From Escherichia phage vB_EcoM_JNE01: a stretch of DNA of 64,000 nt. Made by a program: the position numbers and the translations under genes. Shown one piece after another: positions 1-38,328 of the stretch. Under the pieces are notes generated by a model. It had not been told where the DNA came from. It did not search any database and saw only the letters and a list, made by a program, of their open reading frames with translations. Each line of letters starts with the position of its first letter. The stretch's first letter is position 1. Location: the sequence record OR670491. One strand, written 5' to 3'.

Positions 1-62
1 TAATTAAAAAGGATACACTACTCTTAAGGGACATTGATTCAAAAAACCGCATTCGTGCTAAT

Positions 63-26702: not shown

Positions 26703-27494
26703 ATGAAATTTGTTGTAACATCTGACGTACACGGTGGAACTAATTACCTCCATAGCGGTGATTACAGTGACGTAGTACTGATCATTGCTGGTGACTTTGA
26801 CGAAGTAAAGCGTAGTCGTTATCGTACCGGAATCGAAGAACTGTGTAAGCAGTTCTATAAGGTAGTACTGGTTCCTGGGAATCACGAATACTACGGTTCC
26901 AATATCCAAAAGACGCATCAAGTACTGTCCACTATGCAGGATGAGATTCCTAATTTCATCTTCCTACAAAACAAGTTCCAGTTCATTGGTGATGTACTGC
27001 TCGTTGGTAGTACTCTGTGGACTGACTTTGATAAAGGTAATTCACTGGTTAAGTTTGATGCTAAGATGAAGATGAATGATTACAAACACATTCGTCATGG
27101 CACTACGTCTGAACCTTGGCGTAAGAAGCTGACCCCTGAAGATACTGAGTTCATGCACCATCAGGATAAACAATTCATCAAGAATGCGATTTGTAGTGCT
27201 CGTTTGATGAGTGGTGATGATATTAAAGTACTGGTAGTTACTCACCACGCACCGAGTTACCAAAGTGTATCTCCACGATATAAGAATGATTCACTGAATG
27301 GCTGTTACTGTTCTGATATGGATCAGTTCATCGAAGATGTAGGAGCAGATGTATGGGTACATGGTCACGTACATAGCAGCTTTGACTACAATATCGGAAA
27401 GACACGTATTATTTGTAACCCAAAAGGTTATGAGTCATTTAGTGGTGCATCTGAGAACTTCGACTACAATCCACAATTTGTATTTGAAATCTAG
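26703..27494 (+). CDS. calcineurin-like metallophosphoesterase
   Basis: Motifs SDVHGG, GDFDE, GNHEY, THHAP, GHVHS. Confidence 0.7.
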   Translation: MKFVVTSDVHGGTNYLHSGDYSDVVLIIAGDFDEVKRSRYRTGIEELCKQFYKVVLVPGNHEYYGSNIQKTHQVLSTMQDEIPNFIFLQNKFQFIGDVLLVGSTLWTDFDKGNSLVKFDAKMKMNDYKHIRHGTTSEPWRKKLTPEDTEFMHHQDKQFIKNAICSARLMSGDDIKVLVVTHHAPSYQSVSPRYKNDSLNGCYCSDMDQFIEDVGADVWVHGHVHSSFDYNIGKTRIICNPKGYESFSGASENFDYNPQFVFEI

Positions 27495-27502
27495 GAGTCA
27501 AA

Positions 27503-27901
27503 ATGTCCATAACTTGCTTTACTTTTTCACCTGATGTCAGCGAGATTGTTCGTGTGTATCAGGTTAATTACCAGGTTAATTACCAGGGACGACCCACTAC
27601 TGATTCGTTTTTGGTAATGTCGGCTAACAAGGTAACTACTTTTTATCGTCATCAAGACCCATTTGTTATAAAAGACCGATATGGTATACGTGGAAATAAA
27701 GAACCGCCTATCAGTACTCATACTGGTATTGTACTGGTATGTGTACCGACTAGAGACTATATGTTCAGTACTGAAACTATTCAACAGCAAACATTAAACA
27801 TGGCAGCTTCACGTTCACGTGGAATGTATATTCGTGTAAATTTAGATGACATTGACCCTGGTTTGCGTTATGATTATATTAATGCGTTAGGGAGATTGTG
27901 A
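27503..27901 (+). CDS. hypothetical protein (132 aa) containing 12-bp tandem repeat
   Basis: ORF; QVNYQVNYQ encoded by duplicated CAGGTTAATTAC. Confidence 0.45.
   Translation: MSITCFTFSPDVSEIVRVYQVNYQVNYQGRPTTDSFLVMSANKVTTFYRHQDPFVIKDRYGIRGNKEPPISTHTGIVLVCVPTRDYMFSTETIQQQTLNMAASRSRGMYIRVNLDDIDPGLRYDYINALGRL
27560..27587 (+). repeat. direct tandem repeat (2 x 12 bp CAGGTTAATTAC + partial)
   Basis: Seen directly in sequence. Confidence 0.8.
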
Positions 27902-28308
27902 TAGTGATTAAATTAGATATGGATATCACACAACTAACACTACGCAAGGATAAGAAGATTTCATATGTTATGATGTTTGATGAAGTCTTTGCTAACAAGT
28001 TGACTGGGTGTGCAATAGAAATTCAAACTTTCTTCATTAATGATGACAGCGTTTATGTTAGTCAAGGTGGTCAGCGTGGATGGTTTGATGAGGTATTCAT
28101 GCAACCATATGATATTCAACCAAGTTATGACTACTACTTTTTAGTACCTGGTGATTATGGAACTGTTATGATTGATGATATCACTGACAGTTGTTATACA
28201 GATTCATTAAAACGCTTGACATTTATGAAGTTTGATCCTACAATGTTTAACAAGTTCACAGTTTACTATCTAGCCGAAGTATTTGATGAAATGATGAAAA
28301 AAGGCTAG
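27898..28308 (+). CDS. hypothetical protein (136 aa)
   Basis: ORF with GTG start after GGGAG. Confidence 0.45.
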   Translation: MIVIKLDMDITQLTLRKDKKISYVMMFDEVFANKLTGCAIEIQTFFINDDSVYVSQGGQRGWFDEVFMQPYDIQPSYDYYFLVPGDYGTVMIDDITDSCYTDSLKRLTFMKFDPTMFNKFTVYYLAEVFDEMMKKG

Positions 28309-28364
28309 ACAAACCAAATCAACGTGATATAATACTCACACATTAACAGCAGAGGAAATTAACA

Positions 28365-29060
28365 ATGGTTGAACAATTTATGTTTGGTGGTTATGCAAAT
28401 GGTGAAGTACGTAACATTTCTATTCCTTATGTTGTAGAAAAAGTTAACGGTTCAGAACGCACATATGACTTGGCATCTCGTATGATGCAAGACCGTATCC
28501 TATTCTTGGATACCGATTTCAACGACCAGATGGCACACATTATCAAACAACAATTGGTATGGCTTGATTCACAAGGTGATTCTCCAATCACTATGTATAT
28601 CTCGTCCCCAGGCGGTTCAGTTCACGCTGGTTTGGGTATTGCTGATGTTGCAAAATCCTGTATCTCTCCAATTCGTACTGTTGTTATGGGTTATGCTGCT
28701 TCTATGGGTTGCTATACTCAATCAGTACTGGGTACTAAGGGTTATCGTCTAGGTGGTAAGCGTTCATTCTTCATGTGTCACCAAGTAAGTTCTGGTACAC
28801 AGGGTTTGATTACTGACCAGAAGATTTCTTTGAGGCATTCTGACTCTCTGAACACGCTTCTAACGAAAGAAATCGCTGAAGCAGTAGGTGTGTCTCATGA
28901 ACAACTTCTGAAAGACGCAGACCGTGATTTGTGGCTAAATGCAGAAGAAGCACTTGAGTACGGCGAACATGGTTTCATTGATGGTATCATCCTTGGGCCA
29001 CGTGATGAAGCTGGTAAGTACCTTGTTAAGCGTCGTGGCGGCGTGGAAGAGTGGGTGTAA
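28365..29060 (+). CDS. clpP: ATP-dependent Clp protease proteolytic subunit (ClpP-like)
   Basis: SPGGSV, catalytic-Ser motif GYAASMG, His motif MCHQVSSG, Asp region RDLWLNAEEALEYG. Confidence 0.8.
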   Translation: MVEQFMFGGYANGEVRNISIPYVVEKVNGSERTYDLASRMMQDRILFLDTDFNDQMAHIIKQQLVWLDSQGDSPITMYISSPGGSVHAGLGIADVAKSCISPIRTVVMGYAASMGCYTQSVLGTKGYRLGGKRSFFMCHQVSSGTQGLITDQKISLRHSDSLNTLLTKEIAEAVGVSHEQLLKDADRDLWLNAEEALEYGEHGFIDGIILGPRDEAGKYLVKRRGGVEEWV

Positions 29061-29073
29061 TTGGTTGAGTATT

Positions 29074-29092
29074 GTGCCTCGAATTGAGGCAC
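29074..29092 (+). terminator. hairpin, possible terminator (weak T-tract)
   Basis: GTGCCTC-GAATT-GAGGCAC. Confidence 0.35.
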
Positions 29093-29122
29093 ATTATTGA
29101 TATTTTATTGAGGTAATTTCAA

Positions 29123-29407
29123 ATGACAAAAGTACTCGTTCGTAATAACAGTACTGAAGAAGTTCAAGTACTCGATGATTCAGAATTCATTGATGTAGCA
29201 CTAACTCAAATGTCCGAAGCTGCATTGTCAGTTAAAGGATGTACACAGTCTGAAGAACTGCTTGATGGTTTAGCTGTAGTTCTTGAACTAATGCAAGAAG
29301 TACTTGCAAAAAATAACATCAATCCAATTAACGTTGTGACACATGCAACCAATCTACGTAATGAGTTTGGTTCATTCAGTGACAAAAAAGCATCCACTAA
29401 AGAATAA
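29123..29407 (+). CDS. hypothetical protein (94 aa)
   Basis: ORF. Confidence 0.5.
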   Translation: MTKVLVRNNSTEEVQVLDDSEFIDVALTQMSEAALSVKGCTQSEELLDGLAVVLELMQEVLAKNNINPINVVTHATNLRNEFGSFSDKKASTKE

Positions 29408-29421
29408 GGAATAATAAGACA

Positions 29422-29865
29422 ATGGCTAATGATCAATACAAAGATGGACTAGAAGCATTCAAAGCAAAAGTAGTTCTAACTAATGAACAACTAAAAATGC
29501 AGCATCCACGATTCCGTCAGGGTTATCGTTCTGCACAAGAAGCAGCGATGAAGAAAAACAATCCAACGTTCCCTACAGCATTGTTTGATATTCCTAAACG
29601 TCCTGAAGTGTTTAAGGTCGAATGGACAGACATTATGGCTGCGACCAAACGACCTCGTTTTGCAAAACTTCATACCGATGAAGGTCGCTGGATGCTCATG
29701 GAAATCATGAAAGCAGTAGAAAAACAAGCCGACAAAATCGTTCGTTATAAAGATGTAGTGAATATGGTAGACAAAGCGTTTAACATTATCCTACAGTACG
29801 GTTACGATGAAGGTGTACTGACCGTAACTGATTGCGAACAGTACGATTTCGTACCAGTACAATAA
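29422..29865 (+). CDS. hypothetical protein (147 aa)
   Basis: ORF. Confidence 0.5.
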   Translation: MANDQYKDGLEAFKAKVVLTNEQLKMQHPRFRQGYRSAQEAAMKKNNPTFPTALFDIPKRPEVFKVEWTDIMAATKRPRFAKLHTDEGRWMLMEIMKAVEKQADKIVRYKDVVNMVDKAFNIILQYGYDEGVLTVTDCEQYDFVPVQ

Positions 29866-30013
29866 TCTTTTAAGGGAGTCTTTATGGCTCCCTATTCTCA
29901 TATGAGGAATATATGGAACTTTTAGTGCGGATATACATAAATCATTGTACAAAAATTGTCACTTTTGGGGTAAATACCGAAGGGTAACAGTTTTATAACA
30001 AGGTAGGTGGCAT

Positions 30014-30529
30014 ATGCAACACAAACTAAGTGAAGATCAAAGTGATGTTTTCTTACACCATATGTTTATAATTGATAAGTTTTTTGAGGGATTAAATGCG
30101 GAAGCAACTGCAATAATTAAGAAGTGGTATAAAGCTTATAAAAGAAATAAGAAATGGTATTGGTTGAATCGTGATATGGATTCTTTTATCCGAAAAATCA
30201 CATACAAAGACACCATAGAATTGAAACGTAGTTCTATGGGTTATAGCTATCTTTCTAAAACTCACGAAGAATCATGGAATATTGGGGTTAAAGTATCCGT
30301 TGTAGTTGATATGACCGGATTACCACAATCTGTTATCCAGGAAGAAACTGAGAAGTTATGGAAGATAGTAGAGTTCATGCACGATAACATTTCATTCGTT
30401 TATAAGAATTTCGATGCTTTTACTGACATAAAAGCGTACAATAGAAGCCCATATGTTCTTAGTGATAAACTTTATCATCACATGGAACTATGTAAGGCTT
30501 ATGTGAAGGAATGGAATCTAGAGGAATAA
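30014..30529 (+). CDS. hypothetical protein (171 aa)
   Basis: ORF after ~150 bp intergenic gap. Confidence 0.5.
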   Translation: MQHKLSEDQSDVFLHHMFIIDKFFEGLNAEATAIIKKWYKAYKRNKKWYWLNRDMDSFIRKITYKDTIELKRSSMGYSYLSKTHEESWNIGVKVSVVVDMTGLPQSVIQEETEKLWKIVEFMHDNISFVYKNFDAFTDIKAYNRSPYVLSDKLYHHMELCKAYVKEWNLEE

Positions 30530-30530
30530 A

Positions 30531-31055
30531 ATGAAATATACAGTACTGTCAGCACAAGACACAGAGATATGGCTTGGTAACGTATTAAAAACACTGATGG
30601 TTATAAAGAAGTTGATTTCATCTATCGGTGCTATTGAGACTAATCTCAAGCAAGATATCTTAAATGACTTCCACCGAAACGCGTACATGAAGTTCTACTC
30701 CAATATGTTCTATGGACTTTATGATTCTGATGATATCTGCATTTTTCCAAGTGGGAAAGCATGGTCATTAAACAGTGCATGTTTCAGTGATCTAAGGTAC
30801 AGTTTAACCCAAGAACAAGTGGATGCAAGAAAATACTTGGAACAAATCATGGATGATGGTACAATTACTTTCGTATCGGAAATCAGTCATTGCTGGAATG
30901 TCTATGCAGACAAACCATTCAATATTTCAGAAGAAGATATCATCAATTACACCCGCATCATGAGAATTCATGAATGTGTTAAAATGGCATTAAAAGATAT
31001 AGGACTATACGATGAAGCATGTAACTTGGATGAAGATAGCAGAAGTAGTAGCTGA
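30531..31055 (+). CDS. hypothetical protein (174 aa)
   Basis: ORF. Confidence 0.5.
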   Translation: MKYTVLSAQDTEIWLGNVLKTLMVIKKLISSIGAIETNLKQDILNDFHRNAYMKFYSNMFYGLYDSDDICIFPSGKAWSLNSACFSDLRYSLTQEQVDARKYLEQIMDDGTITFVSEISHCWNVYADKPFNISEEDIINYTRIMRIHECVKMALKDIGLYDEACNLDEDSRSSS

Positions 31056-31488
31056 GGAAAGTAAGTGTCTTTCCCAGCACGTAGGTTGTGTAATCGTCAA
31101 GAATGACCGAGTGTTAAGTACTGGATACAATGGTACTCCATCTAAGCAGGTAAACTGTTGTGATGCGAATGCAAATTTGGTTCACGATGGTAAGTTTCAA
31201 GATTGGGTATCTGAGGATGCAAAACATGAACACCATGAGTGGAGTAATCTCCATGAGATTCATGCTGAGATGAATGCAATTCTTTACAGTTCTCCTACAG
31301 AACGTCAAGGTGCAACACTTTACAGTACTCTCCAACCGTGTTATACTTGTTCTAAGTTAATCGCTGGAAGTGGTATTAAGCGTGTTATCTATATGAAAAG
31401 CTACCCAAGAACTCCAGCAGAAGCCATCAAAGTACTGGAAGATGCTGGGATTGAAGTTAACTGTATTTTTGACATGGGATTAAAATAA
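31012..31488 (+). CDS. cd: dCMP deaminase
   Basis: ESKC..VGCVIV..TGYNG..VNCCD..HAEMNAIL..PCYTCSKLIAGSGIKRV; zinc-binding HAE/PCxxC deaminase motifs as in T4 Cd. Confidence 0.8.
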   Translation: MKHVTWMKIAEVVAEESKCLSQHVGCVIVKNDRVLSTGYNGTPSKQVNCCDANANLVHDGKFQDWVSEDAKHEHHEWSNLHEIHAEMNAILYSSPTERQGATLYSTLQPCYTCSKLIAGSGIKRVIYMKSYPRTPAEAIKVLEDAGIEVNCIFDMGLK

Positions 31489-31787
31489 TGATTCAAGCTT
31501 TTGTTTTTCTTGGTCTGGGGTCGTTCTTACTAATCGTGTGGGTTATTGTTTGTTCTATCATATCAGTAACTGACAGTCCACATAAGATTAAAAAATATGA
31601 GGTTCGTTATGAACCAAAAAACAATAAGTACTATATCGTTCGAACATTCTGCTACTTAGATAAAGAAGAACGCATTCGTGGACGTTTGAGACTAACGATT
31701 TATTATAAAGATATCTCGAAAGCATCATATGTGTGTGAATTACTGAATAAAGATTACAGTGCGATTTCTGGTAATACTGAACTATAA
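31488..31787 (+). CDS. membrane protein (99 aa, N-terminal TM)
   Basis: Hydrophobic FVFLGLGSFLLIVWVIVCSIISV. Confidence 0.5.
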   Translation: MIQAFVFLGLGSFLLIVWVIVCSIISVTDSPHKIKKYEVRYEPKNNKYYIVRTFCYLDKEERIRGRLRLTIYYKDISKASYVCELLNKDYSAISGNTEL

Positions 31788-31795
31788 AAGAAAAA

Positions 31796-31817
31796 GGAGC
31801 CATAAGGCTCCTTTTTT
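31796..31817 (+). terminator. rho-independent terminator
   Basis: GGAGCC-ATAA-GGCTCC then TTTTTT. Confidence 0.75.
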
Positions 31818-31939
31818 GTTATTTAAAAACTATGAATGTAAATGTTAATAGAATGGTCTATTTGTGAAAAATTGGTACATTAGAAGTACTGTAATGTAGT
31901 TATATCTCACCCTGTTCGTTAAGAGATAATAAATTTAGT

Positions 31940-31968
31940 TTGACTTAAGGGAAACTTCCATGTATCAT
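31940..31968 (+). promoter_or_regulatory. sigma70-like promoter (TTGACT-17-TATCAT)
   Basis: Hexamers with 17-nt spacer seen in sequence. Confidence 0.45.
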
Positions 31969-32022
31969 TACTTCATCGTCTTAGAAACACATGGCGATTG
32001 ATGCACAAGTGAACTATAAGTG

Positions 32023-32051
32023 TTGACTTATGGCAAATCTAGTGATACAAT
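32023..32051 (+). promoter_or_regulatory. sigma70-like promoter (TTGACT-17-TACAAT)
   Basis: Hexamers with 17-nt spacer; ~45 nt upstream of ATG 32093. Confidence 0.5.
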
Positions 32052-32092
32052 GCAAGAAACAACATAAAGAGGGCAAAAAAGTGTATCGATTC

Positions 32093-32692
32093 ATGAAGGA
32101 AGTGTTTCAAGCAGTTATCGTTATGATGCTTATCAATTTCCCATGCAGTGCAGGTGTGGAACGAACAAGTGTCATGCGATATTATGAGGAACCTAATGCT
32201 CTGGTGGTTATATCAGAGTTAACGGATGGTTCTGCTGACCGTATAATCAATTTTTACGATAAGACCCCATTCAAAACATTAATCATTACATCTCCAGGTG
32301 GGAGTGTAGATGCAGGTCTGAAATTGGGTTCTTTAGTGAAAGAAAATGGAATTCAAGTGATTGTTGTAAAGTACTGCAACTCTGCATGTTCCCTCGTGTA
32401 CTTCAGTTCACCGAAGGATAAGAGACTAATGGAAGATGATTCAGTACTTGGACTACATAACGTTTCAATTGAAAGCAAAGGGGGTGATGGTGATAACACT
32501 TATGTGACTATTCGACAGTTGAAGCAGTTCACAGAGGAATTGTCATCTAAAGTAGGTTTTATGTTTACGTTGTACGCCAGTAATGGTATTCCTACAAACG
32601 TACTAATGCGTATCGCAACTGCACGTGGTGATGATGTAATTGTTGTCACTAAAAAAGAATTAGAAGTTTGGGAAGCATCAATCCCTGACTGA
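32093..32692 (+). CDS. secreted ClpP/S49-like serine peptidase (putative)
   Basis: Signal-like N-terminus MKEVFQAVIVMMLINFPCSAG; TSPGGSV; CNSACS and GLHNVS motifs resembling ClpP Ser/His regions. Confidence 0.5.
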   Translation: MKEVFQAVIVMMLINFPCSAGVERTSVMRYYEEPNALVVISELTDGSADRIINFYDKTPFKTLIITSPGGSVDAGLKLGSLVKENGIQVIVVKYCNSACSLVYFSSPKDKRLMEDDSVLGLHNVSIESKGGDGDNTYVTIRQLKQFTEELSSKVGFMFTLYASNGIPTNVLMRIATARGDDVIVVTKKELEVWEASIPD

Positions 32693-32765
32693 TTATAATT
32701 ACAAGAGGATGATATGTGTTGTACTCCCCTTGTAAAAAACATATAAAATACACTGGGATATTAAT

Positions 32766-33026
32766 ATGAGCACATTGCTTGATTGGATTTCAATCCTTTA
32801 TTATTCAATTTTAGTTTTATACAGTTTCACTATTCTACTTTCCGTTGGAATGTATAAAGAATTTCGTAATGGTTTTTTGAATGAAAAAACTAATAAGTTT
32901 GCTTCTAAATTCGAAGCAGTACTTTATTATTGTTTAGCTTCTGGATACATTACCTGTTTAGTACTAATGGGTATTCTTATGTATTTTATGGGAACCATTT
33001 TACAAGTTCTTCCATCTCTAAGTTAA
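32766..33026 (+). CDS. membrane protein (86 aa)
   Basis: Two to three hydrophobic segments. Confidence 0.5.
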   Translation: MSTLLDWISILYYSILVLYSFTILLSVGMYKEFRNGFLNEKTNKFASKFEAVLYYCLASGYITCLVLMGILMYFMGTILQVLPSLS

Positions 33027-33032
33027 GTGAAT

Positions 33033-33058
33033 AAAAAAGGGAGCATAAGCTCCCTTTT
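33033..33058. terminator. bidirectional terminator
   Basis: AAAAAA-GGGAGC-ATAA-GCTCCC-TTTT between convergent genes. Confidence 0.7.
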
Positions 33059-33063
33059 CTAAT

Positions 33064-33972
33064 TTAAGCTGCACTTACAACATAAGTACATTCAGCAGTA
33101 TGTGAACCATCAACTGTAGTTACGATAACACTAGCATTACCTTCACCAACTAATGTCACTAAACCTGCATTTGATACAGTAAGAACTTCATCGTTAGTAC
33201 TTGACCATACAACATCTTTGTTAGCTGCATTTACTGGGAGTACAGTTGCAATTAGTGTTTCGGTTCCACCAATTGGGCCATTACTTGATGTTTTACTTAA
33301 AGTAACACCAGTAACTGGGGTATTGACAACATATGCACAAGATGCTACTTTAGAACCATCAACTGTTGTTGCGTTGACTGTTGCTGAACCGTTACCAACT
33401 AGAGTTACTAATCCAGAATTAGACACGGTGAGTACTGCGTCATTAGTACTTGACCATACAACTGATTTATTTGTTGCATTTTCAGGTAATACAGTTGCAA
33501 CTAGTGTTTCAGAACCACCAATCTGACCATTACTAGAATTTTTATTCAATGAAATACTTTCGACTGGAACAACAACTGCGACATACTTAGTCGCGTACTT
33601 ACCAGTTTGTACTTCATTGCCATTAGTAAGAATTACTTTATGGGTGAAAAATTTATATGCAAAACCGAGTGCTTCCATAGTTGTTGCATCATAAACTTTA
33701 ACAGCGAATTCATCACGACCAAGTGCACTTGCAATTTCTTGGGCAGTGGCTGATAAATCAAGTAGGTTACGATTTTTATCTCGACCAACCATTGATACTC
33801 TTTGATAAACAGTAGTTGAATCACTATCAACTAAGTCAAACATGCGAGTACTACACTCGTTGATAATGTATAGTTCTTTATCAATTTCTTGAGCACTGTG
33901 ATCAGTTGCTGCAAAAACACAGATACCACCAACGTTGAATGGCAATTCACCAAATTTAGCTATAGGCTTCAT
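33064..33972 (-). CDS. Ig-like (Big_2 repeat) domain protein, Hoc/decoration- or tail-like
   Basis: Only reverse-strand gene; two ~85-aa repeats ...GGSETL.ATVLP.NA.NK.VVWSSTND.VLTVSN.GLVTLVG.G.A.V..TTVDGS...; AGGAG RBS. Confidence 0.6.
   Translation of the reverse strand: MKPIAKFGELPFNVGGICVFAATDHSAQEIDKELYIINECSTRMFDLVDSDSTTVYQRVSMVGRDKNRNLLDLSATAQEIASALGRDEFAVKVYDATTMEALGFAYKFFTHKVILTNGNEVQTGKYATKYVAVVVPVESISLNKNSSNGQIGGSETLVATVLPENATNKSVVWSSTNDAVLTVSNSGLVTLVGNGSATVNATTVDGSKVASCAYVVNTPVTGVTLSKTSSNGPIGGTETLIATVLPVNAANKDVVWSSTNDEVLTVSNAGLVTLVGEGNASVIVTTVDGSHTAECTYVVSAA
33100..33620 (-). repeat. tandem duplication (~255 bp period) encoding two Ig-like domains
   Basis: Repeated peptide blocks in both the - frame and the + shadow frame. 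Confidence 0.5.
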
Positions 33973-34003
33973 TTGCTTCTCCTATCAATAGAATTATTTT
34001 AAT

Positions 34004-34011
34004 TATTTATA
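34004..34011 (-). promoter_or_regulatory. T4-type late promoter motif TATAAATA (reverse strand)
   Basis: Exact TATAAATA ~32 nt upstream of the reverse-strand ATG at 33972. Confidence 0.5.
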
Positions 34012-34020
34012 AAATTCAGG

Positions 34021-34049
34021 TTGACAAACATCAACAATCCTAATACAAT
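34021..34049 (+). promoter_or_regulatory. sigma70-like promoter (TTGACA-17-TACAAT)
   Basis: Consensus -35 and near-consensus -10 with 17-nt spacer, ~30 nt upstream of ATG 34081. Confidence 0.6.
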
Positions 34050-34080
34050 AGTACTAAATCCAACCGAATAGGAATAAGAC

Positions 34081-34683
34081 ATGACTTGCATCATCGCTCA
34101 CGCAACACGTACTTCATCGTTTATTGCTGCTGACAAGTTAGGTAGCAATAACTTTACAAAAGCAATCCAATCTGAGCCAAAGATCTTTGAGAAAGAGTTC
34201 GATTCTCGTGTATTGGAAGAAGGGTTTATCCCAACAATTCACAAAGATACCATGACAATCGGATACACTACATCGTTCCGTATGGGACAGTTGTTGGAAC
34301 ATTGTCTTGTTCTACCAGAGAAGCAACCAACCCAATCGTTCAAGGAATATCTAGTACAATCAGTAGTTCCAGCTATCCGCACTTTATTCCGTGAAGAATG
34401 GGGTTCTCGTGCCGATAATCAAGATGTAGGTGGTGGTCAGTTCATCATCCTTCATAAGCACAAGATCTATGAAATTCATGAAGACTTCTGTGTACTTGAA
34501 CCAAAAAACAACATCAGTGCAGTTGGTAGTGGTGCATATCATGCAATTGCAGCAATGGCAGCTTATCTAACAGTTGAAACTGAAACTGAAGTTCCATTGG
34601 TTGACCGTATTGGTTCGATCTTTGATATCGTCAGCGATCATGTTGTTAGCGTGAGTTTTGAGCATGACATTCTAAAATACTAA
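34081..34683 (+). CDS. HslV/proteasome-beta-like Ntn hydrolase (putative)
   Basis: Thr at position 2 (MTCIIA...) and ...ISAVGSGAYHAIAAMAAYL resembling HslV GSGG.YA.AAA.AL region. Confidence 0.45.
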   Translation: MTCIIAHATRTSSFIAADKLGSNNFTKAIQSEPKIFEKEFDSRVLEEGFIPTIHKDTMTIGYTTSFRMGQLLEHCLVLPEKQPTQSFKEYLVQSVVPAIRTLFREEWGSRADNQDVGGGQFIILHKHKIYEIHEDFCVLEPKNNISAVGSGAYHAIAAMAAYLTVETETEVPLVDRIGSIFDIVSDHVVSVSFEHDILKY

Positions 34684-34711
34684 TAGGTGCACTAATATAA
34701 TAAGAGAGTAC

Positions 34712-34906
34712 ATGATGACATGGGATATTCTTGACATTGTTTTGCAGTTCTTGATGATTTTGATTGCAGTTGTTTGGTACAATCACATTGTTCTGTTATA
34801 TAATGAAGTTCGTAGTACTAAAGCAGATAAACATTTGACGTACCACATTTCAATCATCGTAAGTGCTTCAATTGTTCTTCTAACGAACTATTTGTTTGCA
34901 CGTTGA
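34712..34906 (+). CDS. small membrane protein (64 aa)
   Basis: Two hydrophobic segments. Confidence 0.45.
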   Translation: MMTWDILDIVLQFLMILIAVVWYNHIVLLYNEVRSTKADKHLTYHISIIVSASIVLLTNYLFAR

Positions 34907-34917
34907 AAGGTCAACAT

Positions 34918-35670
34918 ATGTCTACACAATCCTTTTTAGAAAAAGCAGGGGAAAAACGTTTACTGATAATCAGCGGGGCTGGGTTATCGGTTGAAAGTGG
35001 GATGGAGCCATTTCGTTTTGATGATGGCTTATGGGATAACTTTCAAATCAATGACGTGTGTAATATTGCACGTCTTAGTTCCAAATATCATATAGTACAT
35101 GCATTCTATAATACTCTAAGAGTAAAATTAGGTTCGTGTGAACCAAATGCAATGCACTATTACATCAAATCATTAGAGGATCAGTACAAAGATAATTTCT
35201 TACACATGACCTCCAATATGGATGATTTGTACACTCGAATCGGTGGAACCGAGTTGAAGCTTCATGGTAATCTACGAGAAGTTATTAAAAACTACTCAAT
35301 CAATAGTGATGACTATGAAGTAATTGACTGTGGTTATGAACCGTTCATTCCAGAGACTGATGTGTTCTCTAAACCAAATGTTGTTATGATTGGTGAATAT
35401 CATCGTTATGTGGATGGGAACCGTCTTCCTATCTACGAAGAACGAAATGAAGTGTTGCGTAGTCTTACTGAAAATGATACAGTAATTGTTATTGGGAGCA
35501 GTGATACAGTACTGGTATGGTCCAGACTAGCTGGGGCGTTACCTTGTTATAGTGTTACTGTTAACGTCAGAAAGAATGACAATGACTTCCTATTCAATGA
35601 ACGTATCATTAAGCCAGCAACTAAAGCAATTCCAGTACTGGAGCCAATCATTAAGGAAAGAATGAAATGA
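34918..35670 (+). CDS. Sir2-family protein (NAD+-dependent deacylase/ADP-ribosyltransferase/NADase-like), no Zn-ribbon module
   Basis: GAGLSVESGMEPFRFDDGLW, TSNMDDLYTRIGG, KLHGNL, VIVIGSSDTVL match sirtuin motifs; ATG 34918 after GAAAGG. Confidence 0.65.
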   Translation: MSTQSFLEKAGEKRLLIISGAGLSVESGMEPFRFDDGLWDNFQINDVCNIARLSSKYHIVHAFYNTLRVKLGSCEPNAMHYYIKSLEDQYKDNFLHMTSNMDDLYTRIGGTELKLHGNLREVIKNYSINSDDYEVIDCGYEPFIPETDVFSKPNVVMIGEYHRYVDGNRLPIYEERNEVLRSLTENDTVIVIGSSDTVLVWSRLAGALPCYSVTVNVRKNDNDFLFNERIIKPATKAIPVLEPIIKERMK

Positions 35671-36224
35671 GTTTGAGAGAAGTACCACTCGGAGAATTTG
35701 GCAAACAAGCAAACTTTGTATTCTGTTACTTCTTTGCACGAAATTGTAATCCATATGAGAATTACGAGTTGAATGATATTCCAGTAGTTAATCTGGTACT
35801 CCTTCAACTCCGTTGGGATGGGTTGATGGGTGGATGTGGAGGAACAGTTGAAGATTCTGATACTTCACTTGAAGCTGCGTTGAAGCGTGAAATCCAAGAA
35901 GAAATGGATTATAATATTTCCATTGAACAGTTGAAACCTCTAAAGACGTTTGAATTGTTCCCTGGTGCTAACACTCATAGCTTCAGTTATGAAGTCACAT
36001 ATGATGAGTTGAAAGCGATTCGTGACGGGTACAGTACTGCTAAACATGCCAGTGCTGAAGTAGCGGGTGTAAATTTATGTCACATTTCTCGATATTCTAA
36101 GGGAAAAAATCGAGAAGCAGGATATAATAATCTCATGACACAAAACTTCATTGGAACAGCTAAGGAAGAATTGCAGTACTTAGTTGAAAATGAAAACTTA
36201 CTTATCAGTTACTTACAAGGGTAG
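35667..36224 (+). CDS. Nudix-like hydrolase (putative, divergent Nudix box)
   Basis: GGCGGTVEDSDTSLEAALKREIQEEMDY resembles GX5EX7REUXEEXGU with altered spacing. Confidence 0.4.
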   Translation: MSLREVPLGEFGKQANFVFCYFFARNCNPYENYELNDIPVVNLVLLQLRWDGLMGGCGGTVEDSDTSLEAALKREIQEEMDYNISIEQLKPLKTFELFPGANTHSFSYEVTYDELKAIRDGYSTAKHASAEVAGVNLCHISRYSKGKNREAGYNNLMTQNFIGTAKEELQYLVENENLLISYLQG

Positions 36225-36230
36225 AACAAA

Positions 36231-36551
36231 ATGTCATATGAAATGTTCCTCGATGATATTCGTAACCCAGGATACTATTATCCAGGTCGTTCGATGGTTG
36301 TATGTCGTGATTTTAAAAGTGCATGTAAACAAGTTGAAAAATTTGGTATTCCATCATTTATTTCATTCGATCACGATTTGGGCGACATGAATTATGATGA
36401 AAAAACTGGGTATTCCTTCGCTAAATGGATTATTGATTATATGTTTGAGCACGAAATCAAAACACCTTTTGCATTTCATGTTCACAGTAGTAATCCAGTT
36501 GGTAAAGTGAATATCGAACATTACCTTAACAATGCATTCGAAAATTTATGA
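36231..36551 (+). CDS. hypothetical protein (106 aa), conserved acidic motifs
   Basis: FLDDIR and SFDHDLG motifs; no family assigned. Confidence 0.45.
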   Translation: MSYEMFLDDIRNPGYYYPGRSMVVCRDFKSACKQVEKFGIPSFISFDHDLGDMNYDEKTGYSFAKWIIDYMFEHEIKTPFAFHVHSSNPVGKVNIEHYLNNAFENL

Positions 36552-36838
36552 AACAGTTAATTATAAGTGCATTAATAACAATAGCGTTATGTACGGTGTG
36601 TATTCTAATTTTGAATTATATTGACCAAAATTCAAAACAGAATGAACACTTTCAGTCCGCTGTAGTAATTTCATTAGGTCAGTGCAGTAAAAGTGCATGT
36701 TCTTTCACTTACAAAACCGAAGATGGTTATGTAATGTCTGGACTGTCAGAAAAACCAGTATCGATTGGTCAGATTGTTTACCAAAAGTGCTGGGAAACTA
36801 AAGTGCGAGGTCATGCTTGTAGTGATTTCGTGCAATAA
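36548..36838 (+). CDS. secreted/membrane Cys-containing protein (96 aa)
   Basis: N-terminal hydrophobic segment. Confidence 0.45.
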   Translation: MKQLIISALITIALCTVCILILNYIDQNSKQNEHFQSAVVISLGQCSKSACSFTYKTEDGYVMSGLSEKPVSIGQIVYQKCWETKVRGHACSDFVQ

Positions 36839-36888
36839 GTAATCTACCAATCGAGTACAAGGATGTACTCATAACTCAAGGATGTTTT

Positions 36889-38328
36889 ATGAAAAAATAT
36901 ACAATTGACACAAACGTACTACTATCTGATCCAAATGCTACCATTGCTTTTGATGGAGCAGCTATCATTCTACCGTTCACAGTACTTGAAGAATTGGATT
37001 CAATCAAAAGTCGTAATGTGGATGTTTCCCGTGATGCTCGTGTTGCAATCCGTAATATTGAAGCAATCCTTTCTGATGCATCACATGAAGAAATTAGTAG
37101 TACTGGTGTTAATATTGCTGATGTTCATACTAATATGAGTCCTGAAAGCAAATTGTTTGTTATTACAAGCGAAGAAGCTGAAGCACTAATTCGCACTGCT
37201 GGTAACGAAGAGAAAGTTCAAACTCTTCTAAAAAGCACAGTACCAGATGATAAAATCATTTTAGTAGCATTAGCAACTGATTCAGTACTGGTTACCCGTG
37301 ATATCAATATGCGTATCAAGGCTCTAAGCTACGGGGTGGAAGTTCAAGATTACCGTCATGATATCGTGATTGGTGATAGTGATTTGATTCACATTGGTCA
37401 ACATCACCTTGACCTACATTTCTGGGATGTGTATAGTAATCTGACTGATGTATCTATTCAGTCTGAACAAGTTGGTCGTCGTTTGTACCACTACATTCCA
37501 AAAAGCTTGATTGAACATATCATGCCACAAAATATTTGCATCGGTGATTACCTATATGATAATGCTGATGTTCTATTTGTGTACGAAGGCCAATCTGCAA
37601 TTGAAGAAGATGATGGTACTTTAACACCAGAAGATATTCTTGTATTCCAAGATATTGGACAATCTGTTGCTCTACGTGCTAAAGTGTGGGATATTAAGGC
37701 TAAGAATATTCAACAAGCACTAGCAATCAACAGTATCCTAGATCCTGATGTTCATCTAACAGTACTGTTGGGTTCCGCAGGTACTGGTAAAACGCTAATT
37801 ACCATTGCGACTGCACTTGAATTGGTTCTTGAGAAGAAGAAATATGACCGTATTATGTTCTCAAAACCACAAGATTCACAATGGGCCGAAATCGGTTTCT
37901 TACCAGGCACTGAAATGGAAAAAATGCTACCACATTGTGGCCCTGCATTGGATGCTTTGGAATTCTTACATAAAGATGATGCATCACCACAAGGTAGTAT
38001 TGAGGAAATAATCAAGCGTAATGTTATTCAGTTCAAAGCATTGAACTTCATTCGCGGTCGTTCATTTACCAACACTATTCTGGTTGTGGATGAGTTTCAG
38101 AACATCACACCTGCTCAGGCTAAGACAATCCTTACCCGTGCTGGCATGAACTGCAAAGTGATTATTCTTGGGAACTTGGCACAGATTGATAGTAAATTCA
38201 TTAGCCCAGTTAACAGCGGCTTAACATATGTTGTTGAGAAATTTAAAAACTGGGATGGTTGTCGAGTAATCGAACTCGAAGGTGTTGTTCGTTCACCACT
38301 GGCAGAATTTGCTGAAGAAAATATGTAA
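36889..38328 (+). CDS. phoH: PhoH-like ATPase with N-terminal PIN domain
   Basis: PIN-like YTIDTNVLLSD...; Walker A LLGSAGTGKTLITIA; Walker B-like ILVVDEFQN. Confidence 0.8.
   Translation: MKKYTIDTNVLLSDPNATIAFDGAAIILPFTVLEELDSIKSRNVDVSRDARVAIRNIEAILSDASHEEISSTGVNIADVHTNMSPESKLFVITSEEAEALIRTAGNEEKVQTLLKSTVPDDKIILVALATDSVLVTRDINMRIKALSYGVEVQDYRHDIVIGDSDLIHIGQHHLDLHFWDVYSNLTDVSIQSEQVGRRLYHYIPKSLIEHIMPQNICIGDYLYDNADVLFVYEGQSAIEEDDGTLTPEDILVFQDIGQSVALRAKVWDIKAKNIQQALAINSILDPDVHLTVLLGSAGTGKTLITIATALELVLEKKKYDRIMFSKPQDSQWAEIGFLPGTEMEKMLPHCGPALDALEFLHKDDASPQGSIEEIIKRNVIQFKALNFIRGRSFTNTILVVDEFQNITPAQAKTILTRAGMNCKVIILGNLAQIDSKFISPVNSGLTYVVEKFKNWDGCRVIELEGVVRSPLAEFAEENM

Follow-up and report, generated by a model that had tools for sequence, protein, structure and literature searches.

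The partner unfoldases of ClpP (MEROPS S14; PF00574) are cytoplasmic and ATP-driven, and SppA, or protease IV (S49), and the NfeD/1510-N enzymes use a Ser-Lys dyad. COG3904 ("predicted periplasmic protein"), which is widespread among bacterial exported proteins, shows a signal or lipoprotein leader followed by SxGG, Cys-x-Ser-x-Cys and G-x-His motifs on a ClpP-type core. In the literature we searched, COG3904 is listed as "function unknown" or else appears as an apparent mislabel for CopG; we found no functional study of it, nothing relevant on periplasmic ClpP-like proteins, and no dedicated Pfam or NCBIfam model for the family. Here we describe a gene of 203 codons at 32081-32692 on the plus strand of Escherichia phage vB_EcoM_JNE01 (record OR670491; the window is the whole stretch of 64,000 nucleotides that was analysed). 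Its product (phrog_26024) is predicted to be an exported, COG3904-like ClpP-fold hydrolase, and we consider it probable that it is a soluble Ser-His enzyme of the periplasm. An earlier description of the locus, drawn from its letters alone (the sequence-only reading), had proposed a secreted ClpP/S49-like serine peptidase behind tandem promoters. Orthologues have been on deposit as "protease (ClpP-like)" since 2014, and what we present is a better annotation of a known, uncharacterised and large family. The orthologues 121Q gp473 "protease (ClpP-like)", RaK2 ORF497 and A4 "ClpP/crotonase-like domain protein" are 32-54% identical to the JNE01 protein and syntenic with it, near dCMP deaminase, HslV-like, Sir2 and PhoH genes; the GenBank annotations examined for them make no mention of export, of a cysteine pair or of a relationship to COG3904. 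The labels given to orthologues in GenBank are inconsistent, and include protease, hypothetical protein, ATP-dependent Clp subunit, head maturation protease and, in vB_EcoM_CRJP21, nudix hydrolase.

Structure prediction, one of the checks that the sequence-only reading had proposed, gives a confident model (AlphaFold with a 97-sequence alignment; pLDDT 91.5, pTM 0.82). The model has a ClpP/crotonase-type alpha/beta fold, and ClpP is its best structural match (Foldseek against the PDB, 9e-10); the family profile against PDB ClpP gives 1.4e-8. Its parts include a helix at the N-terminus (residues 2-19), a linker of low confidence (20-30), a beta-hairpin (strands 31-35 and 40-44) and, where ClpP has its "handle" helix, a long helix (144-167). 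Three independent alignments (phmmer, hhalign and profile) place Ser101 on the nucleophilic Ser of ClpP, His126 on its catalytic His, and TSPGGS on SPGG. The TSPGGS motif (residues 70-75; 32288-32305) aligns to the oxyanion-hole region, the predicted nucleophile Ser101 (32381-32383) lies between two invariant cysteines in Cys99-Asn-Ser101-Ala-Cys103 (32375-32389), and His126 is encoded at 32456-32458, all on the plus strand. The alignment of 10 phage sequences shows no variation at S71, G73, G74, C99, S101, C103 and H126. Among 97 homologues, G73, G74, C99 and C103 are present in every one, S101 and H126 in 96, and S71 in 93. The ClpP-like TSPGGS, Ser and His motifs of the sequence-only reading are confirmed. 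C99 and C103 are the sole cysteines of the predicted mature protein. The Cys-x-Ser-x-Cys arrangement is the hallmark of the family; it is missing from true ClpPs such as P0165 and the window's own ClpP. PHROG 26024, which is named "protease", matches the protein at 4e-74. The likeness to ClpP in sequence is weak but consistent; phmmer with the protein against PDB ClpPs gives E ~0.03-0.1.

The residue numbers used here count from GTG 32081, which is most likely the translation start. The sequence-only reading had begun the gene 12 nt further downstream at ATG 32093, which is residue 5 of the protein. We favour the GTG because the Shine-Dalgarno AAAGAGGG (32066-32073, plus strand) lies 7 nt upstream of it, because the Turkey5 annotation has the same start, and because the N-termini of orthologues align there; a GAGG-like element stands in the same place in orthologues, and ATG 32093 is 19 nt from the Shine-Dalgarno. 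We also considered and rejected a longer open reading frame from ATG 32030, which would begin inside the spacer of the proximal promoter described below, has no Shine-Dalgarno, and is at odds with orthologues that start at the position of GTG 32081.

We judged export by rules (Kyte-Doolittle windows, small residues at -3 and -1) and by comparison with orthologues. A Sec-type signal peptide, MYRFMKE / VFQAVIVMMLINF / PCSA, is predicted at residues 1-24 (32081-32152, plus strand), and Gly25 would be the first residue after cleavage. Its n-region, MYRFMKE, is positively charged, with two basic residues and one acidic; the h-region, VFQAVIVMMLINF, is a 13-residue hydrophobic core; and the predicted site, PCSA/G (the slash marks cleavage), has Pro at -4 and small residues at -3 and -1. 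The Kyte-Doolittle maximum is 2.75 in an 11-residue window (residue 8) and 2.61 in a 10-residue window. The small-x-Ala motif is found in most of the enterobacterial-phage orthologues aligned, as NFPASA/G, NFPAAA/E, PSSA/E and SANA/G. RaK2 (IFPSHD) and a Vibrio phage protein, which has a longer N-terminus resembling a transmembrane (TM) segment, have no obvious cleavage site. The N-terminus holds neither a twin-arginine motif nor a lipobox, and we rejected a lipoprotein, since the sequence NFPC is no match to a lipobox and orthologues have Ala or Ser in place of Cys22. An N-terminal hydrophobic leader, defined as a 10-residue window with hydrophobicity of at least 2.0, is present in 85 of 92 full-length homologues, and in 78 of those 85 a Lys or Arg precedes it. 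In 18 of the 92 the leader is lipobox-like, that is, lipoprotein-looking. The number of cysteines beyond residue 35 is even in 84 of the 92, as would be expected of exported proteins with disulfide bonds. A leader of this type is missing from the window's own canonical ClpP and HslV-like proteins. A signal-peptide-like N-terminus was part of the sequence-only reading, and the charged n-region, the core, the residues around the predicted site and the retention of the motif agree with it. Both features whose absence that reading had named as evidence against itself, a cleavable signal peptide and a conserved Ser-His dyad, are thus supported by the computational evidence. Given the export signal, the site of action is most likely the host periplasm.

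Orthologues were found by tblastn in 48 phage records, of which 47 are genomes of 310-386 kb and one is a 46.8-kb Klebsiella phage record; a scan of IMG/VR recovered just 121Q and RaK2 themselves. A word-indexed protein search returned, for the single sequence, its own near-identical cluster alone and, for a 25-sequence profile, 16 matches. The family became visible with an exhaustive HMMER search, which gives 596 cluster representatives at E<=1e-3 and 15 at E<=1e-10. With a bacterial exported family of this size, to call a periplasmic ClpP fold unusual, as the sequence-only reading did, is an overstatement. The close full-length group, with 186-225 residues and its own conserved C-terminal part (Y165, G169, P171), comes from phage contexts: RaK2-like contigs in which the gene stands beside NMNAT-NUDIX, NAMPT, Acb1 and Sir2 genes, and the T4-like contig described below. 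The remaining matches are bacterial proteins, mostly of about 230-390 residues. Their alignment covers chiefly residues ~35-135 of the phage protein, and they differ from it in having other C-terminal regions or added PG_binding_1, SH3_3 (SH3b), LprI, PAN and Sel1/TPR domains; those that carry a cluster name are called "hypothetical protein". A Mesorhizobium relative (P0154; profile E 1.8e-8) is a "COG3904 family protein" in UniRef and carries SPGG, CASAC and GVH. By homology to this COG3904-named protein, we assign the JNE01 protein to a putative phage branch of a COG3904-like exported ClpP-fold family. The traits of a COG3904-type protein are there: an N-terminal leader, and the SxGG ... C-x-S-x-C ... 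G-x-H signature with its elements in the same order and at the same spacing as in the bacterial members.

Gene order around some relatives is worth recording. In a Mesorhizobium contig (L015, 6001-9145), the COG3904 gene has a KAP NTPase gene in its vicinity and a DsbB gene at a distance of about 1.6 kb; this may be coincidence, but it is of note given the invariant cysteine pair. In a T4-like metagenomic contig (L017, 5591-6681) in which gp45, gp44/62 and RegA are present, a COG3904-like exported protein (P0017) is encoded directly after dCMP deaminase. The jumbo-phage orthologue also comes just after dCMP deaminase (31012-31488 in the window), so that the adjacency recurs across unrelated phage groups.

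Several points weigh against a soluble periplasmic Ser-His hydrolase. The literature that we searched gave no biochemical data for any member of COG3904. The Asp of the ClpP triad is not conserved: the aligned positions 185 and 186 vary across the family, as does 184, hhalign puts the ClpP Asp opposite V186, beside D185, and position 185 is D in 20 cases, E in 12, N in 11 and S in 9. Because this position varies, the family looks like a Ser-His dyad enzyme, or else it relies on some other third residue. Conservation of the cysteines is no less strict than that of the Ser, and for that reason their role may differ from that of a structural disulfide. Finally, whether the N-terminus is cleaved or serves as an uncleaved anchor is judged from rules and conservation.

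That last point opens the way to the alternative that survives best, although we hold it to be improbable. The N-terminus would be an uncleaved signal anchor, and the enzyme, tethered to the inner membrane, would work with or on an 86-residue protein with two predicted TM segments, in the manner of NfeD/1510-N, a membrane-bound ClpP-fold protease that processes its operon partner stomatin. The gene for this small protein (86 codons, 32766-33026, plus strand) is directly 3' of the ClpP-like gene in Asteriusvirus, where its relatives are 36-40% identical, and no terminator separates the two; long TM-like N-termini without an obvious small-x-small site occur in the Vibrio phage protein, P0038, P0011, P0015 and P0153. 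However, small-x-Ala with Pro at -4 is kept in most enterobacterial-phage orthologues aligned (RaK2 excepted), a hydrophobic core of about 13 residues is short for a stable TM helix, and the small membrane protein is not encoded beside the orthologues in RaK2, EJP2, Hallingskeid, XaC1 and the Vibrio phage. The Pfam and NCBIfam scores for NfeD are also far under their cut-offs (NfeD1b_N / PF25145, 16.4 bits against 40), and we found no SPFH/stomatin gene nearby. The S49 comparison goes the same way: PF01343 does not match, and the protein is much smaller than SppA and NfeD enzymes and has a single domain. As the conserved residue is a His at the ClpP position rather than a Lys, and no model of either family scores above its cut-off, we do not regard the protein as a member of S49 or NfeD. 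Of "ClpP/S49-like", the sequence-only label, the ClpP-like part stands by fold and by the positions of Ser and His, and the S49 part falls.

The conservation of C99 and C103 in 97 of 97 homologues, at least as good as that of the Ser, together with the lack of conservation of the ClpP Asp and the fusion of some bacterial relatives to peptidoglycan-binding domains, favours an exported protein that is not a protease. It could be a hydrolase of peptidoglycan stem peptides or of lipid or acyl esters, or could have a redox or metal-binding role through Cys99, Cys103 and His126. We give this a poor chance, since Ser101, His126 and the SxGG oxyanion motif are all retained at the catalytic positions of ClpP and there is no similarity to known metal-site families.

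We consider it very unlikely that the protein is a cytoplasmic ClpP whose partner in assembly is the phage ClpP (28365-29060) or host ClpX/ClpA, and whose hydrophobic N-terminus is a propeptide. A canonical phage ClpP gene does lie 3 kb upstream, relatives are annotated in GenBank as ATP-dependent Clp subunits, and PF00574 scores 22.0 bits, just above its cut-off of 20.2. Against this, all NCBIfam ClpP models score 16-22 bits where their cut-offs are 228-251. True ClpPs lack both the export signals seen across the family and the invariant pair of cysteines around the Ser, and a signal peptide and beta-hairpin take the place of the N-terminal gating loop and first helix of ClpP, a cytoplasmic tetradecamer that docks a AAA+ unfoldase through such loops. 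With that segment replaced, and the unfoldases of ClpP being what they are, we do not expect an ATPase partner. The protein thus resembles ClpP at the catalytic centre, and by our comparisons it falls outside ClpP on the Asp, the N-terminal gating, the predicted compartment and the NCBIfam thresholds.

The head-maturation (prohead) protease annotated in fEgEco12, vB_Ec-M-J and WPEC5 has, beyond that annotation, a weak NF045542 Clp_rel_HeadMat similarity in its favour (22.8 bits, far under the 120-bit cut-off) and is hardly credible, because the phAPEC6 orthologue gp346c is not among 62 proteins that mass spectrometry found to be associated with the virion and gp227c of phAPEC6 is a separate T4-type "prohead core scaffold and protease" (PMC7247149), because the gene sits among nucleotide/NAD-metabolism genes behind sigma70-like promoters and outside a head module, and because an export signal is incompatible with cytoplasmic prohead assembly. 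The phAPEC6 virion does contain the neighbour gp347 (75% coverage) and the PhoH-like gp341c (30.9% coverage) (PMC7247149). On this assessment the JNE01 protein should be counted neither as a second ATP-dependent Clp subunit nor as a head-maturation protease, a refinement at the level of annotation.

For the soluble periplasmic hydrolase that we prefer, the analysis shows the fold, motif conservation, leader and promoter conservation, and the absence of a relative's orthologue from the virion, and we infer export, cleavage, a disulfide, catalysis and timing. Judging by the sequence and by promoter conservation, host sigma70 RNA polymerase would transcribe a two-gene unit from the proximal promoter P2, and in this lineage also from the distal promoter P1, between two strong terminators. 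Translation would start at GTG 32081; the 24-residue signal peptide would direct Sec export, and signal peptidase I would cut after Ala24 and leave a soluble protein of ~19.5 kDa. In the oxidising periplasm, Cys99 and Cys103 would probably form a disulfide that braces the strand-Ser-helix turn bearing Ser101. Ser101 and His126, with the SPGG oxyanion region, would then, independently of ATP, act as a hydrolase on peptide bonds or, possibly, on ester bonds or other amide bonds. Both the peptidase activity and an action on host envelope proteins are predictions at this stage. As candidate targets early in infection, proteins or peptides of the periplasm or envelope are the most plausible, whether they belong to the host or to superinfecting phages.

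A bolder form of the proposal is that a self-contained ClpP-fold protease is exported early to remodel the envelope, where it would degrade receptors, envelope-stress sensors or ejected proteins of superinfecting phages; we put this forward as a tentative and rather unlikely idea. To our knowledge, few phage proteins are known to reach the periplasm early in infection. The known ones, in T4 and T5, usually control superinfection, lysis timing or receptor availability. If the idea is true, the protein would be a proteolytic superinfection-exclusion or takeover factor and would represent a new class of phage periplasmic effector; a disulfide-clamped Ser-His site would be the defining mechanism of COG3904, and hundreds of bacterial "predicted periplasmic proteins" would thereby gain a function. 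Jumbo phages of the RaK2/121Q group and a T4-like contig share a conserved exported hydrolase, which would offer a tractable entry to COG3904 function.

The window belongs to an Asteriusvirus-type jumbo phage. Its G+C content is 35.9%, and over positions 31000-34000 it shares 97.1% identity with Turkey5, an Escherichia jumbo phage of 351 kb. Remoter relatives belong to Asteriusvirus (121Q, PBECO4 and phAPEC6) and to Alcyoneusvirus (RaK2 and K64-1). The hydrolase gene is preceded by a 293-nt intergenic region that starts with a bidirectional intrinsic terminator (31790-31817), GAAAAAGGAGCC-ATAA-GGCTCCTTTTTT. The terminator, detected on both strands, has a 12-bp stem with 5 GC pairs and a T-run; it ends the upstream unit and isolates the promoters of the hydrolase gene. 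The two TTGACT-17-TAnnAT promoters that the sequence-only reading had placed about 80 bp apart are both present in this region as sigma70-like sites on the plus strand, 83 bp apart. The distal one, P1 (31940-31968), is TTGACT-17-TATCAT, with identical hexamers in Turkey5, and the proximal one, P2 (32023-32051), is TTGACT-17-TACAAT with a TG extended -10.

Counts of such sites are unpersuasive in AT-rich DNA, and it is context and conservation that make a persuasive case for P1 and P2 as candidate promoters. In the window, TTGACT-N16-18-TAnnAT is observed 4 times where 1.58 are expected; because 7 of 100 shuffles reach 4, this count alone is weak evidence. In 10 kb of this AT-rich DNA there are 35 sigma70-like sites, where 39 are expected. 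Six aligned phages all have the -35 TTGAC of P2, in upstream DNA that otherwise diverges. A proximal sigma70-like site, with the end of its -10 at 29-38 nt before the start codon, is found at 9 of 12 orthologous loci, including those of EJP2 and Erwinia phage Hallingskeid, whose proteins are ~28-30% identical to the JNE01 protein. A second, distal site 98-135 nt upstream is also present in Turkey5, 121Q, Turkey3 and phAPEC6. As it recurs in these four relatives, the tandem layout is a feature of the lineage and not an accident of this genome. Early genes of the RaK2-like phage CBB are predicted to be marked by RpoD-like promoters (PMC5259590); from this and from the promoter conservation, the hydrolase gene is likely to be expressed early.

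Over the whole window, TTGAC[AT]-16..18-TAnnnT has 25 matches on the plus strand, which is gene-rich, and 2 on the minus strand, and many of the matches fall inside or at the ends of upstream open reading frames. The asymmetry suggests a dense array of early promoters, with compositional bias as another possible cause.

The hydrolase gene is probably co-transcribed with the 86-codon gene, whose product has, besides the two predicted TM segments, a basic loop, KEFRNGFLNEKTNKFASKFE; the protein has no Pfam, PHROG or PADLOC family match. We found no canonical (T-run) terminator between the two genes. A hairpin directly after the hydrolase gene (32699-32735) was considered as a terminator and rejected, as it has no T-run and a z of -0.74 against shuffled sequence. 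A bidirectional terminator hairpin, AAAAAAGGGAGC-ATAA-GCTCCCTTTTC (33034-33060), lies after the second gene, between convergent genes; it was missed by the consensus scan and read from the sequence, and it is the probable 3' end of the unit. From the lack of a T-run terminator between the genes and the presence of this hairpin after them, the two genes are probably bicistronic. Two near-twin hairpins, each with A-runs and T-runs on its flanks, bracket the unit: GGAGCC-ATAA-GGCTCC and GGGAGC-ATAA-GCTCCC.

Upstream of this unit, the gene order is DNA ligase, metallophosphatase, ClpP (28365-29060), a MazG-like gene, dCMP deaminase (31012-31488) and a gene for a 99-residue membrane protein, followed by the first terminator. 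After the hydrolase gene, the gene for the 86-residue membrane protein and the second terminator come a minus-strand gene for a Big_2 Ig-domain protein, an HslV-like gene (34081-34683), and Sir2, NUDIX and PhoH genes. The canonical phage ClpP matches PF00574 at 4.8e-41 and the HslV-like product matches phrog_1040 at 2.6e-21, so that, as the sequence-only reading had noted, three protease-like genes, with the hydrolase in the middle, lie within 6 kb.

The canonical ClpP gene (feature 28216-29060) likewise has tandem sigma70-like sites. The distal one, TTGACA-17-TACAAT (28216-28244), is inside the upstream open reading frame, and the proximal one, TAGACA-16-TATAAT with TG, is at 28306-28333; they lie ~120 and 31 nt from the start codon, a spacing nearly the same as at the hydrolase gene. 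The HslV-like gene (feature 34021-34683) has its own TTGACA-17-TACAAT promoter, with the end of the -10 at 31 nt before the ATG. Its product is of the N-terminal-nucleophile hydrolase type and starts MTCIIA, so that Thr2 could become the N-terminal nucleophile. There is no HslU-like partner among the genes at 27000-37000. In 121Q, the HslV-like gene and the exported ClpP-like gene share one operon, which the HslV-like gene directly continues.

The minus-strand Big_2 Ig-domain protein (33064-33972) has two repeats; its gene separates that of the small membrane protein from the HslV-like gene. Three relatives have instead a shorter gene on the opposite strand upstream of the ClpP-like gene. In 121Q it encodes an Ig-domain structural protein, in phAPEC6 gp347, a virion protein without annotation, and in A4 a putative structural protein. 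The opposite-strand insert therefore varies in position and length between relatives. The PADLOC defence-system families match neither the hydrolase nor its neighbours. Further downstream, 34903-38328 encodes Sir2-like and NUDIX proteins and a PIN-PhoH fusion of 479 residues. As related contigs carry NAMPT, NMNAT-NUDIX and Acb1 genes nearby, this region looks like an NAD-salvage and counter-defence neighbourhood.

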